In this document: piece by piece, positions 6,001-12,000 of the stretch
Layout of the letters: each line of letters begins with the position of its first letter
Position numbering within the stretch: the first letter of the stretch is position 1
Virus record (IMG/VR): IMGVR_UViG_3300037678_000008
Location: 1 to 12,369 of that record
DNA from: a virus
Lineage: Duplodnaviria; Heunggongvirae; Uroviricota; Caudoviricetes
Direction: 5' to 3' (one strand)
DNA length: 12,369 nt
Made by a program: the position numbers

Positions 6001-9000
6001 ATACTTACTTGCATCTATTTTCAATAATTGGGAATTATACTTCTTTATAACGCCTCGTCCCGGAAAAAGAAACCAAAACATAAAAGCCATCCATATACAC
6101 AGCAACATTAAAACAGCGCCCATTCCTATAAAAACAGCGCCATAATTTAACGACCAACAGAAAAATATCAAGCCATCAGCCAAATAAAAGATAGAAACAA
6201 CTTTAGAACACCAGCGACATCGTTTGTATTTACCTTTGTAGCGTATAAAGAATCTATCGTATTTACACTGAATATGGGGTGCTAAATAACCCCACTGCCA
6301 AAACGGCATTTTCAATTCAGAATACGTTCTGACATAAATAACTAACGTTCTTAATTTCTGGCTACTTATACCTAATATACTTTTTTTAACTTCTCTTTTG
6401 ATTTCTGCCTTCATAAACTCTACATCAGAAGGCTCAATATGCTCCGGATAATTCTTCAGAATATGCGAGAATTTTGTTGTTTTCGGTAAAAACCAACTAG
6501 CATCTTTAAATAACTTATAAACACCGACTGGTGCAGTTATGGCTGAAATTATGACTCCAACAAGTGAGATAATATCTTTCGTATCCATGTAGCTAATTCT
6601 TCGGAGTAAATACAATGTCCAATATACTATGGGGCGACCTGGAAACTTTCTGTGAAATACCTATCAATAATGGCACCCATGCGTATGCCGAAGGCGTTGA
6701 AGTGATGCTTTTCGCATGGGCTATCAACGACGGGCCAGTAAACGTGTGGGATATCACTGCCGGTGGTGGTATTCCACACGGCTTATACGAAGCAATCGCA
6801 GACCCTGAAACCCTGCTTTATTTCCATAACTCTCACTTCGACCGCACCGTTCTGCGTTATGCAATACCGCGACTGGCACCGCCAGTCGAACGTTGGCGCG
6901 ACACAATGGTGCAGGCGCTGGCGCACGGTCTCCCGGGGTCTCTGGGGGAACTCTGCGAAGTACTAGGCGTCCCGCAAGACAAAGCGAAGGACAAAGAAGG
7001 TAAAGCGCTGATCCAGCTGTTCTGTAAGCCACGTCCGAAAAACAGCAAACTGCGCCGTGCCACCAGCAAAACCCACCCGGAAGAATGGCGGCGCTTTGTT
7101 GCTTACGCCGGACTGGATATCGAGGCAATGCGCGAAGTCTATAAACGTCTACCGAAGTGGAATTATCAGGGGACAGAGCTGGCGCTCTGGCATCGTGATC
7201 AGCAGATCAACGACCGGGGCGTCTGCATGGACGTGGAACTCGCACGCGCTGCGATCGACGCGGTAGACCAGGAACAAAAGCGCCTGGCAAAGCGTACACA
7301 GGAAATGACTGATGGCGAAGTGCAGGCAGCCACACAACGAGACGCGTTGATTAAGCACATTGTTGAATCCTACGGTGTGGAGCTACCAGACATGCAACGC
7401 AGTACTCTGGAACGTCGTATTGCCGACCCCGATTTACCATCTGCCGTGAAAGAACTGCTGGCTATCCGCCTGCAGGCCAGTACTACCAGCACCAGTAAAT
7501 ACAAGGCACTGATGAAAGGCGTAAGCCACGACGGGCGCTTACGCGGTACGCTACAGTTCTGCGGGGCGTCACGTACCGGTCGTTGGGCCGGACGGCTATT
7601 CCAGCCCCAGAACCTTCCCCGCCCTTCACTAAAACAGGAACAAATAGACGAAGGCATCGAAGCACTGAAAGCCGGATGTGCAGACCTGCTGTTTGACAAT
7701 ATCATGGAACTAACCAGTTCAGCGTTACGTGGCTGCATTATCGCGCCAACAGGCAAAAAACTGGTGGTAAGTGACTTGTCGAACATTGAAGGCCGTATGC
7801 TGGCATGGCTGGCGGGAGAAGAATGGAAACTGAATGCATTCAGAGAGTACGACGCCGGAACGGGTCCGGACTTATATAAACTGGCGTATGCAAAAGCTTT
7901 CGATATTGCACCAGATGATGTTGATAAACACATGCGTCAGATCGGTAAAGTCATGGAACTCGGTCTGGGTTATGGAGGTGGTGTATCGGCTTTCATCACT
8001 TTTGCTCTGGTTTACGGTCTCGATCTCGACGAGCTGGCGAACGCCGCACTGCCAAACATTCCCCGCGATGTTATCCACGAGGCGAAAAGCTGGTACGACG
8101 AATCGGTTAAACGCAAGTCAACCTACGGGCTTTCTGAACGGGTATTTATCGCCTGCGACTCACTTAAACGTCTCTGGCGCCGGGCGCATCCCGCGACCTG
8201 TGATTTCTGGTACGAACTGGAGCGCACCGTCCGCACTGCAATCGCCACACCGCAAAAAACATTGTATTGCGGTTATCTTAAAATCCGCCGCGATGGCGCG
8301 TGGCTGCGCATACAGCTACCATCCGGACGCGCTGTATGCTACCCGTCTCCGGTTATCGAAAAAGGGAATATCACCTACATGGGGGTTAACTCTTATTCGC
8401 GTAAATGGCAACGACTCAAAACCTACGGCGGAAAGCTGGTGGAGAACATCACCCAGGCGGCCGCCCGCGACATTCTGGCCGGAAACATGCCGCTTATCGA
8501 AGATGCCGGTTACAGCATTGTGCTGACGGTACACGACGAGGTGATCACCGAAGCACCTGACACAGAAGATTTCAACGATAAAGCGCTTTCCGCGCTTCTC
8601 TCCACTGACCCCGAATGGGCGCCCGATATCCCACTGAACGCTGGCGGTTTTGAGGCGTACCACTACAAAAAAGATTGATATAACTCACCTTATCGAGCTA
8701 TGGCGACATGCTGAATTCGAGTAAATTAAAGGAACAATACTTATGCAGGAACTAACTGAAATGCCGATCACCTATCCATACCCGAGAGAAACTTTTCCTG
8801 ACTTTTTGAGGGAGTGTGGGTTCACCAATTTTTCCCACGAACAGCGTGAGACTTGTGACTGCTATCGTTTAACGAATGGCGTAATTGTTAACCTTTACAC
8901 CACCCGGACCATTCAGTTTCAAGGTAACCCTCAAGAACGTCCCAATGTTGAAACTGCAATAATGACCCATTTAGGAACGCCGCCCACGGCAACACCACTA

Positions 9001-12000
9001 GCCGTAGAACAGCCATCTGAGCTCCCCAAAAAGATATTCATTGTTCACGGCCATGACCATACTGCAAAGGAGCAACTTGAGCTAATCCTTCATAAACTTG
9101 GATTACCAGACCATTTCATTTTGCAGAATACGGGAGGGACTGGACTCACCATTATTGAAGAGCTTGAACGTGAAATTGGGCAAGGACAAACTGCTACCCG
9201 TTTCGGGATTGTTCTTTTGACACCTGATGATATGGGATACTCAAAGCGCGCCGGTGAAGCAGAAATCCAACCCCGCGCAAGACAGAACGTTGTACTCGAG
9301 ATGGGTATGCTTCTTTCGTCCTTAGGGCGCAGCAATGTAGCAATCCTTCAGAAACAGCACCTAGAACAGCCTTCTGATGCTAACGGGATTTTGTATCTGA
9401 ATTTCAACGACCATGTACGTGAAACAGTTCCTCGTCTAGTGCAACGGTTACAAAATTCTGGTTTCGAATTTACACAAGCTCAAATAGCTAACGCTTCCTC
9501 GTAATTACCCCTTATTGTTGATTACAACCCTGCATCGCGGGGTTTTTTATTTGGGAATAAAAACCCTATGTCATTTAAATACCGGGACAGTCCGCTTTAT
9601 TACCGGACTGTGCGGGAGGCTTTGCACCTTGAACAGTCCGGCGGGTACGACCGGGCGATGCAGGTCTGGGCCAAAGCGAACGTCGGTTTGATTTTTGTCT
9701 GATGCAGAACATGCGCGAAAAGCGTAAGGAGGTGGACGATGTCTAATATCGATAATAAGGGTTGGGGGTTCCCCGCTCTGTCAAAAAAAGCACATTTCTT
9801 TAATTCGGGGGAAGCCATATCACTATGCGGAAAATGGATGTTCACAGGTATCAGGATTGACGAATGGCATGACCATCCTGAGAACTGCGCTATCTGCATG
9901 AAGAAACGCAAAAAGCAGGAAGGCGAAAGCTAATGGCCTATGAACGTGAAAACCTAATCGAAAAGCACCTCGTCGCTGAAGTAAAAAAGGCTGGCGGGGT
10001 TGCCTTTAAGTTCGTATCTCCCGGTCTCCGCTCGGTACCAGATCGCATTGTTCTGCTACCCGGCGGTCGCATCGTTTTTGTCGAATGCAAAGCACCAGGC
10101 AAACCACCACGACCTGATCAGTTGCGCGAGCATGAACGTCTGCGAAAACTGGGCTTTACCGTGGTGGTATTAGATAGCAAAAATCTGGAGGGGATATTGT
10201 GAGTAAACGTGATGACCCACAATTGCGGGTACGCATCCCGCAAGACTTGAAAGACACACTGGAAAAAATTTCCAGAGAAAACGACAGAACACTAACCGCC
10301 GAAATCACCCGGCGGTTACGTAAAAGTTTAGAGGATGAATCCACTATTCATTCTCAGGATTTAGCAACTTCTTAAGTTTTTCCATCACTTCAATAAGCTC
10401 GTATTTGTTTTCATAAACCCATTCGACCTGATACTCTCGATGGTACGTTGTCTTAAGTTTCTCGAGAAGGTCCCTGAGTATGAGAATCTCATCAGCAGCT
10501 TCCTCAAACCCCCTAGATGTATGAAGTAATTTGTCCTGAAGAATAGTAGATTCCAACCGGCTAACGATCTCAGAGGTCAGTGTTCTCTTATTAGCCCGTG
10601 CTTTCTTCTCCAAAGCCTCTTTTAGCAATTCTGGTATGCGTACCCTCAACTGCGGGTCGTCTCTTTTGCTCATATATGATCCCTTGAAAGTGTGAGAACA
10701 ACATGCCTCACAAACATGTTGACTTCAAGCCTCATTGTGAGTACTAATAAAGTCCTCACAATGAGTACAAAACAAGGTTAACGCTATGGCTATTCAGATC
10801 ACGCAGTTACATCAGGCAGATATTTTCGGGTATATCGCGGACATGCTGGAAACAGCAAGGCTTCTCAGTTCGCTGGAAAAAGGAGAGCAGTTAGCTTTTG
10901 AATTGATTTATTTTGCGCAGCAGGCTGCAAGGGAAGCTGCAAACAAGCCGTGGGATGAATAAATAAAACGCGCTGATAGTTGCAGCTACCAGCGCATCTT
11001 TTATTGAATGGAGAATACTTCAATGTTCGAAACAACTTTAACACTAGCAGGCACTGGTAAGCAACCGATGATGAGCAGTCGCGAGATTGCAGAACTTACC
11101 GGCAAAGAACATAAAATAGTCGTGCGCGATATTAAAGCACTTCTTGAGCAGTTAGGTTTTCATAGTACAGAAATGTACCATCATGAAAATAAAGACTTTT
11201 TAGTCAAAAGGAAGGTCTATAATGGTCGCGAAGTCATTGATGAAATACTACTCGATCAGGACCTTTCCACAACGCTTGTAACTGGTTATAGCGCCCACGA
11301 CCGGTATAAAGTAGTTAAGCGCTGGCGTGAGCTGGAAACAGGTAAAGTACAACCGCTTGTTACCCATCCTTCCACACCCAAAATTCAGATCAACGACGGC
11401 ATCGTCCAGCTTGCTCGCGTCGTAGCAGAAGCAACAATGAAAGCCTGTCTTGATGCAACTGGCTATTTTCAACCAGCCGCACCAGCGAATTTATCTCATG
11501 TTGAAGGTGAATATGTCCCCGTCAGCAAAGCAGCATGGAAAACAGGTTTATCTGATTCAACATGCCGGAAATTGATCGGCTTCGCCAGGATACCGGTACG
11601 TTCAGACACCGGTGTTCGGGGATTGCTCGTTAACCTTCCGGCGATCGAACAAGCAGCTCAAAAGCTGTTAAACGAATCGACACCGCCGAAAGGTAACCGC
11701 AAGCGCTGGACACATCCGCAGTTTGGCAACTTCACCTACTACACCGATCTAATCTGACATTATTGCGCGGGATTACCCCGCGCCCTACTGGCTAAAATAC
11801 TATGGGACAAATTTTCACGCCTCGCCCCTACCAAGATCTAATTATCAACCACGAAATAGGTATTTCCCGCTGCAACATCTGGGCAGGTATGGGAATGGGT
11901 AAAACCGTAGCGACACTCACTACGCTGGAAGACCTCTTCATGGCAGGGGCAGAAACACGCCCCGCACTGGTCCTCGCGCCGCTACGCGTTGCAGCAAGCA

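Follow-up and report, generated by a model that had tools for sequence, protein, structure and literature searches.

A gene for a stand-alone TIR protein is located within a phage replication operon, at positions 8743-9504 of a 12,369-nucleotide stretch of Caudoviricetes DNA (IMG/VR record IMGVR_UViG_3300037678_000008, positions 1 to 12,369; the whole stretch is referred to as the window). A first-pass annotation, made from the sequence, had proposed a TIR-like effector with an unrecognised N-terminal domain, acting in abortive infection, superinfection exclusion or counter-defence. The analysis described here places a TBP-like domain in front of a TIR domain with an intact predicted active site, encoded by a cassette that some related prophages carry and others lack. 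We consider it reasonably likely that the protein is a single-protein, oligomerisation-activated abortive-infection module which depletes nicotinamide adenine dinucleotide (NAD+) and protects the lysogen.

A C-terminal TIR domain with a conserved active site

The reading frame and the motifs noted earlier proved to be real, with RETCDCYRL at residues 35-43 and NVVLEMG at residues 182-188 of the product. The gene was divided as follows:

8743..9504, plus strand: TIR-gene open reading frame (ORF), ATG start, 253 aa; TBP-like domain, linker and TIR domain; member of PDC-S35 / PHROG 16442
8764..8976, plus strand: TBP-like domain, putative sensor, residues about 8-78; predicted beta-alpha-beta4-alpha
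8977..9027, plus strand: linker, residues 79-95; variable, modelled with low confidence
9028..9414, plus strand: TIR domain of the CAP12/Pycsar type, residues 96-224; motifs FIVHGHD and RARQNVVLEMG
9298..9300, plus strand: GAG codon of E186, the predicted catalytic glutamate; aligned to the E of NVVFEFG in 7un8
9376..9378, plus strand: codon of D212, the counterpart of SfSTING D110, predicted to complete the active site of the neighbouring subunit; QPSDANG aligned to LPTDLDG
9415..9501, plus strand: helical tail at the C-terminus, residues 225-253; conserved among family members and modelled as helices 225-238 and 245-252

Residues 97-222 matched the Pfam family PF10137 (CAP12-PCTIR_TIR, STIR clan) with an E-value of 2.9e-31, and the match covered profile positions 1-118 of 119. 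The score of 108.4 bits, compared to a gathering cut-off of 24.7, indicates a similarity to TIR domains far beyond chance. In a sequence search of the PDB, the sole matches of the protein were two TIR-STING (Cap12) proteins and PycTIR. Similarly, the best PDB match of the full-length model in Foldseek was TIR-STING (9lmq/9lmr, E=2.6e-5, probability 1.00), followed by flavodoxins and the TIR domain of BtpA. The proposed TIR-like domain of the CBASS/Pycsar type is thus supported by both the Pfam and the structural match.

The active site of SfSTING consists of R78, N80 and the catalytic E84, complemented by D110, which is donated by the neighbouring TIR domain (cryo-electron microscopy, PMC9402430). 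These four residues align with R180, N182, E186 and D212 of the window protein; the index of the deposited 7un8 chain is offset by 8 relative to the numbering of the SfSTING paper, so that index 92 is E84. In a family alignment of 52 sequences E186, R180 and D212 were invariant and N182 was conserved to at least 90%, and the glutamate of the NVxxEMG motif accordingly occupies the catalytic position that had been suggested for it. As the active-site residues are both aligned and conserved, the TIR domain appears to be catalytically competent and is predicted to act as an NAD+ glycohydrolase. By analogy to the solved relatives, its chemistry probably depends on packing of TIR domains against each other. 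The tail that follows the domain showed a mean pairwise identity of 62% within the family.

Bacterial TIR domains can deplete NAD or synthesise a signal, and the same catalytic glutamate is common to both activities. The window protein might therefore act as a signal producer of the ThsB type, making an ADP-ribose-derived messenger for an effector encoded elsewhere with no depletion of NAD+. Such a role appears highly improbable, since the domain belongs to PF10137, an effector-type TIR family, and yielded no match to ThsB_TIR (PF08937). Moreover, a gene for a ThsA-like or other effector adjoins the TIR gene neither here nor in six other genomic contexts, and a recent survey of signalling TIR proteins set the stand-alone ones aside as likely NAD depleters.

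The N-terminal domain resembles TBP-like substrate-binding domains

Residues about 8-78 were modelled at a predicted local distance difference test (pLDDT) score of about 90. Foldseek with the full-length model left this domain unresolved, with matches to a G-protein-coupled receptor fusion and to flavodoxins dominating after TIR-STING, and the domain was then modelled alone. The resulting model displayed the monopartite TBP-like fold, the same as that of the RNase H3 N-domain and of TBP1 of RnlA. When a sequence profile of the N-domain was compared with 177,635 PDB sequences, the three top matches were RNase HIII (3vn5), LsoA (5hy3) and RNase H3 (4py5), all of them weak (E=0.036-0.26). The domain described earlier as matching nothing recognisable is, by model and profile, of the TBP-like type found in the RNase H3 N-domain and RnlA TBP1. 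The full protein also gave a match to PF15935 ('RnlA_toxin', E=0.098), which was rejected as an indication of a toxin domain and reflects the TBP-like domain.

In RNase H3 the monopartite TBP-like domain binds RNA/DNA hybrid (PMC4132731), and a domain of the same type is needed for substrate binding in RnlA (PMC8266594). Four of the seven hybrid contacts of Ta-RNase H3, namely Tyr43, Ser45, Ser47 and Gly52, correspond to Y52, T54, T56 and G61 of the N-domain and are well conserved. Two observations speak against extending this function to the window protein. The remaining contacts, Glu27, His28 and Arg32, have no conserved counterparts, and the N-domain is acidic with an isoelectric point of 4.95 (family median 5.7). 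At the level of Pfam profiles, the query reached 15.8 bits at a cut-off of 27, and among 26 family members eight matched PF15935 (best E=9.4e-5) and three DUF3378 (PF11858), all below the Pfam cut-offs. The acidic charge weakens the case for nucleic-acid binding without excluding it. Given this charge and the lack of counterparts to Glu27 and His28, nucleic-acid sensing is uncertain and is treated here as a lead, not as a finding.

The N-domain might instead bind a nucleotide second messenger made by a host or phage cyclase encoded elsewhere, and the protein would then be an orphan effector listening in on another system. The TIR domain does belong to the same Pfam family as the Cap12 and PycTIR effectors, and the N-domain occurs together with TIR, transmembrane and other modules (see below), as in the combinatorics of CBASS and Pycsar. 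Nevertheless, we regard this explanation as quite unlikely. The N-domain is unlike STING, SAVED and cyclic-nucleotide-monophosphate (cNMP)-binding domains, and the domains most closely related to it bind nucleic-acid polymers; the NCBIfam Cap12 equivalog models scored 34.8 and 30.5 bits compared to a cut-off of 450, and only in the TIR part. A cyclase was also absent from the window, as stated in the first-pass annotation, and from six independent homologue contexts.

A conserved TIR domain and exchangeable N-terminal domains

The protein as a whole, which had been considered unrecognised, turned out to be a full-length member of a described family. Residues 10-253 matched positions 3-245 of 245 of the PADLOC model PDLC05003 (E=6.8e-109), which belongs to PDC-S35 (models PDLC05003-05007), a computationally defined single-gene candidate system. 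The protein is also matched by PHROG 16442, for which no function is annotated, and it is already named as a TIR or TIR-like domain protein in GenBank and RefSeq. Hence, the TIR assignment is routine; the part worth an experiment is the putative TBP-like sensor, which is common to dCTP-deaminase and membrane effectors.

A word-index protein search identified 2,703 homologues. The 120 best of them derive from, among other named sources, Klebsiella, Proteus, Yersinia, Serratia, Vibrio, Vreelandella and a metagenome-assembled genome of Vicinamibacterales, and most of these 120 keep the two-domain layout of about 250 residues. The two domains differ in conservation, with a mean pairwise identity within the family of 76% for the TIR domain versus 36% for the N-domain. 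The linker between them has a mean pairwise identity of 13% and a pLDDT below 50 at residues 80-93. A similar distribution was seen between two E. coli alleles, which are 89% identical in the TIR half and 47% identical over the N-terminal 95 residues comprising N-domain and linker. In distant viral relatives the same HGHD...RARQNVxxExG TIR domain follows several unrelated N-terminal domains of 100-150 residues, and all ten variants of this kind that were tested matched the PDC-S35 models.

The reverse combination was observed as well. A hidden Markov model of the N-domain alone retrieved 839 cluster representatives, and ten from a subset of 150 were scanned against Pfam. In the protein P0233 the N-domain precedes a deoxycytidine triphosphate (dCTP) deaminase (kinase-deaminase) defence effector (PADLOC dCTPase, E=7e-173, residues 94-610), and in P0243 a multi-pass membrane protein forms the fusion partner. 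In further metagenomic proteins, P0202 and P0168 being the others named, the N-domain precedes unknown C-terminal domains or occurs in tandem with a second copy of itself. This pattern suggests that the N-domain is a swappable sensor common to several effectors. Immune proteins of the sensor-effector kind would be expected to show just this architecture, with exchangeable N-domains on a conserved effector and a single N-domain serving different effectors.

Compared to PDC-S35 and PHROG 16442, the window protein has the same single-gene layout of a variable N-domain and an HGHD-type TIR domain and shows no structural difference; the N-domain of the family had not been identified previously, and no published description of its TBP-like domain was found in open-access papers and bioRxiv preprints. 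CBASS Cap12 (SfSTING, PDB 7UN8 / 9LMQ) and Pycsar PycTIR (8JSJ) share with it the PF10137 TIR domain and the R, N, E and trans-acting D residues, and, by analogy, a likely activation by assembly. However, the window protein has neither the STING domain nor the CD-NTase of Cap12, its TIR domain being C-terminal to a TBP-like domain. Likewise, it has no cNMP-binding domain or nearby pyrimidine cyclase as in PycTIR (the PADLOC PycTIR match, E=1e-8, is confined to the TIR part), and it differs from Thoeris ThsB in the points given above. As it lacks the sensor domains and partners that define these proteins, it is not a Cap12, PycTIR or ThsB.

The N-domain type is shared with RnlA and LsoA, HEPN RNase toxins of anti-T4 toxin-antitoxin systems, but these combine a HEPN effector with two TBP-like domains, whereas the window protein has a TIR domain, a single TBP-like domain and no adjacent RnlB-like antitoxin gene. 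RNase H3 (HIII) has a similar substrate-binding N-domain; its RNase H catalytic domain is missing here, and specificity for hybrids cannot be assumed. Some members of the dCTP deaminase defence systems (PADLOC dCTPase; AvcD-like), such as P0233, share the TBP-like N-domain, but their effector depletes dCTP and not NAD+; they bear on the window protein only in indicating that the N-domain is a defence module that can be transferred. In its mode of action, the window protein would be most similar to single-protein TIR defences on mobile elements such as SpbK of the Bacillus subtilis element ICEBs1, a functional analogue. SpbK is a TIR NADase with an N-terminal recognition domain; it aborts the infection by another phage and senses a phage portal protein. 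SpbK differs in TIR subfamily and N-domain and was not among the top structural matches of the window protein.

The TIR gene is an accessory cassette of the prophage lineage

The genes around the TIR gene form a temperate-phage replication module with a DUF2800 / PD-(D/E)XK nuclease, an Enc34-type ssDNA-binding protein, a family-A polymerase, VRR-NUC and Rha. The cassette and its flanks comprise the following elements:

6615..8678, plus strand: family-A DNA polymerase gene, 687 aa, Pfam DNA_pol_A E=3.4e-14; conserved upstream flank of the cargo slot
8680..9560, plus strand: TIR cassette of about 880 bp (spacer with ribosome-binding site, ORF, terminator); present or absent among related prophages
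8729..8733, plus strand: Shine-Dalgarno sequence AAGGA, 9 nt 5' of the TIR-gene ATG, read from the sequence
9526..9554, plus strand: intrinsic-terminator-like hairpin and U-run, inside the TIR cassette
9568..9746 (about), plus strand: ANR-family regulator gene, 'frameshifted' in the RefSeq record of identical sequence; downstream flank of the slot
9739-9933: small ORF, 64 aa, between ANR and VRR-NUC
9933..10202, plus strand: VRR-NUC nuclease gene, Pfam VRR_NUC E=0.0018 (below the gathering score), annotated in RefSeq; downstream anchor

The region 8000-10250 of the window recurs with 100% identity in a prophage of E. coli HY220605, which ends at an integrase gene adjoining yfhL, and NZ_CM132922.1 encodes the identical TIR protein (100%) as WP_001157068.1 ('TIR domain-containing protein'). 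The TIR gene had been placed between the polymerase and VRR-NUC genes; it does lie in this interval, together with two small intervening genes, ANR and the 64-aa ORF, that had not been mentioned. Its lower G+C content (0.42-0.48, compared to 0.50-0.58 for the polymerase gene) and its own ribosome-binding site and terminator were found as claimed. The terminator hairpin at 9526-9544 has eight pairs, five of them G-C, followed by a T-run, and is the sole terminator-like site in 8500-10000. As a single site is not above expectation (shuffle mean 1.8), its meaning rests on position and not on statistics. The frameshifted ANR gene, located immediately downstream of this terminator, aligns with the intact ANR genes of the related prophages L003 and L010, and about 57 bp internal to the intact gene (in L003 and in the UPEC 26-1 copy) have no aligned counterpart in the window.

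To delimit the cassette, the window was compared by blastn with five related prophages (L003, L010, L011, L012 and L013). Homology was lost at 8666-8679, at the end of the polymerase gene, and regained at 9561-9565, the start of ANR, in relatives bearing ANR, or at 9933 in relatives lacking it; the VRR-NUC gene was 89-92% identical in every relative compared. Among 5,426 complete E. coli genomes, the polymerase region occurred in 159. The TIR gene was present in 47 of these, 37 with the window allele (IAI1 included) and ten with a diverged allele, and was absent from the other 112. Hence, it is not a core gene conserved in all relatives. The slot was found empty in UPEC 26-1 and RMDEC465, in which ANR follows the polymerase gene after 5 bp.

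In other relatives the interval between polymerase and VRR-NUC contains a small hypothetical gene with a methyltransferase gene, DUF4406, DUF7446, a reverse-strand ATPase gene, or a hypothetical gene with YfbU. DUF4406, the S-adenosylmethionine (SAM) methyltransferase and DUF7446 were rejected as alternative occupants of the TIR-gene slot: they are located between ANR and VRR-NUC, one gene downstream, and the phages carrying them have an empty polymerase-ANR junction with the 5-bp gap. In the prophage of E. coli A4 (L012:1687-2715, minus strand), a 341-aa ATP-binding protein is encoded in the interval, with a weak PADLOC match to DrmA of DISARM (E=2.9e-8), and may represent another defence-type cargo of the same region.

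In all 38 IMG/VR loci with a homologue at least 64% identical, the TIR gene was located about 60 bp after the polymerase gene and co-oriented with it, even where the polymerase was only 74-78% identical. Conversely, some phages encode a polymerase 97-98% identical beside a TIR allele only 72% identical. Near-identical polymerases beside diverged TIR alleles indicate exchange of the cassette through the conserved flanks. No direct or inverted repeats suggestive of site-specific insertion were found at the cassette ends, and exchange by flanking homology fits these ends better. In a Salmonella prophage of this type, a homologue with 57% identity occupies a different variable region, located between the genes for the single-stranded DNA-binding protein (SSB) and the polymerase. 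Thus, the earlier description as an inserted cargo gene holds in that the gene is a stand-alone accessory cassette absent from most relatives, but diverged alleles in the same slot do not agree with a recent one-off insertion. The TIR gene is a long-standing mobile accessory of the phage lineage, neither a core gene nor a one-off insertion. With respect to the features of a moron, presence/absence polymorphism, lower G+C content and a terminator were seen, and a sigma-70-like promoter was not found.

The constant position behind the polymerase gene, with no promoter of its own detected, would also be expected of a gene of the replication operon that benefits the phage, i.e., a TIR-like N-glycosidase acting during lytic growth by remodelling of nucleotide or NAD pools, exclusion of co-infecting phages or countering of host immunity. 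Cargo of benefit to the phage, such as methyltransferases and DUF4406, occupies the same interval in relatives, and a hybrid-binding domain like that of RNase H3 might have to do with replication intermediates. We nevertheless consider this explanation unlikely. The lack of the gene in 112 of the 159 related regions shows that it is not needed for replication, and the Salmonella relative carries it away from the usual slot. In addition, many homologues are found in non-phage islands that also contain toxin-antitoxin and restriction genes, and activation of an NADase-like active site would be expected to harm the replicating phage.

Homologues examined outside the phage lineage have no constant partner

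Outside this phage lineage, the homologues occur in various mobile settings. One of them adjoins integrase, Mrr and PemK genes, and that of Vibrio cholerae is part of an element resembling integrative and conjugative elements, with a relaxase. Another shares its island with DUF4062, a reverse transcriptase and two toxin-antitoxin pairs (ParDE and Phd/YoeB are named among the neighbours), and the homologue of V. parahaemolyticus lies in a cassette-array-like run of small genes. Neither a cyclase nor a constant partner gene was found in any of these four kinds of setting, and the neighbours differ in each context examined, which fits a one-gene system. In line with this, a homing endonuclease was all that a PADLOC scan of the other window proteins identified; the TIR gene had no partner among them, as had been concluded before. 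As no partner recurs and the N-domain resembles polymer-binding and not nucleotide-binding domains, both an orphan effector of a cyclase system and a ThsB-like signal producer become less likely.

Proposed function and expression

Based on the PDC-S35 match and the location of homologues in defence islands and on mobile elements, a role in defence is the best-supported reading, whereas counter-defence has no specific support. In the proposed mechanism, the TBP-like N-domain would serve as a sensor or regulator that is tethered by the flexible linker to the TIR domain and meets a cue during infection by another phage. This cue would most plausibly be a phage-derived nucleic acid structure, otherwise a phage protein. 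Binding would lead to oligomerisation, and packing of the TIR domains would complete the active site in trans, as derived from the SfSTING mechanism. The active TIR domain would then deplete NAD+ and so arrest growth of the infected lysogen before the invading phage can finish its cycle, resulting in abortive infection or superinfection exclusion. Of this scheme, the analysis shows the domain identities, the intact active site, the presence/absence cassette, the carriage on mobile elements and the reuse of the N-domain on other effectors; NADase activity, activation by oligomerisation, the trigger, the defence phenotype and expression in the lysogen are inferred.

Several points weigh against a lysogen-protecting abortive-infection module. 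The main weakness concerns expression. A search for sigma-70-like promoters in the cassette of the window, in the allele of ECONIH2 and in the homologue from Salmonella yielded nothing above shuffle expectation, and the TIR gene starts about 64 bp past the polymerase stop codon in the same orientation. Without a promoter and co-oriented with the polymerase gene, it may be expressed during the prophage's own lytic replication and not in the lysogen, which would fit the protection of a lysogen less well and leaves room for the phage-benefit role considered above. An element over the polymerase stop codon, TGATATAAC, was rejected as a promoter by eye, as the conserved final T is missing and a -35 element does not occur at proper spacing. 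Further, the TIR part of the AlphaFold model is of moderate confidence (pLDDT about 65), PDC-S35 has the status of a candidate system only, and no experimental work on the PDC-S35 family was found in open-access papers and bioRxiv preprints.

A more far-reaching and rather doubtful extension would see in the TBP-like domain a portable sensor of minimal size for nucleic acids, e.g., RNA/DNA hybrids or early structured phage RNA, which nucleates the assembly of any effector fused to it. One sensor would then drive a TIR NADase in the window protein and, in other fusions, a dCTP deaminase or a domain that disrupts membranes. SPARTA (short Argonaute/TIR) systems are much larger, and in them recognition of a nucleic-acid duplex leads to TIR oligomerisation and collapse of NAD+; if the extension were true, the window protein would accommodate a similar logic of duplex recognition, TIR oligomerisation and NAD+ collapse in 253 residues.

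If the predicted protection of the lysogen by NAD+ depletion holds, few self-contained TIR immune proteins would be smaller than this one. About 1% of complete E. coli genomes carry the gene, and IAI1, the reference commensal, is one of them. It resides on an inducible prophage, and lysogeny by this phage family would alter which other phages, therapeutic ones included, grow on the host. Reuse of the N-domain would mark a shared infection sensor, the ligand of which could be identified with one small, easily purified domain and would provide a first functional handle on the PDC-S35 family.

Further variable elements of the replication module

A second cargo hotspot seems to be located upstream of the polymerase gene. 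In the window, a 208-aa ORF (5989-6615, minus strand) directly precedes the polymerase gene; it has a G+C content of 0.34 and, by eye, several hydrophobic stretches, and gave no Pfam or PADLOC match. A SIR2-family gene is located immediately upstream of the polymerase gene in E. coli ECONIH2, and the TIR homologue of the Salmonella prophage lies in the SSB-polymerase interval. In the same Salmonella prophage (L099/L100, about 2843-3613), the SSB gene is adjoined by a gene with an Nmad5 (nucleotide-modification-associated) domain.

Two RNA elements on the plus strand, at 4745-4830 and 4975-5058, matched the Rfam families sRNA-Xcc1 (60 bits) and C4 antisense RNA (70.6 bits) above the gathering score. 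Both are located directly upstream of an AntA/Ant antirepressor gene (5110-5874), an arrangement like the c4-ant control module of P1/P7 immI. The segment 4058-5989 is wholly absent from the otherwise 97%-identical phage vB_EcoM-606R2. The homing endonuclease gene is of the NUMOD4/HNH type (1682-2200, plus strand; PADLOC HEase E=1.6e-21) and lies between the genes for a 300-aa protein and the DUF2800 nuclease. As these two genes are adjacent in vB_EcoM-606R2, the homing endonuclease gene represents a second presence/absence element of the module. Two convergent Arc-family genes, at 10199-10375 (plus strand) and 10344-10673 (minus strand), overlap by 32 bp. Their products of 58 and 109 aa are almost identical at the N-terminus (MSKRDDPQLRVRIP...).

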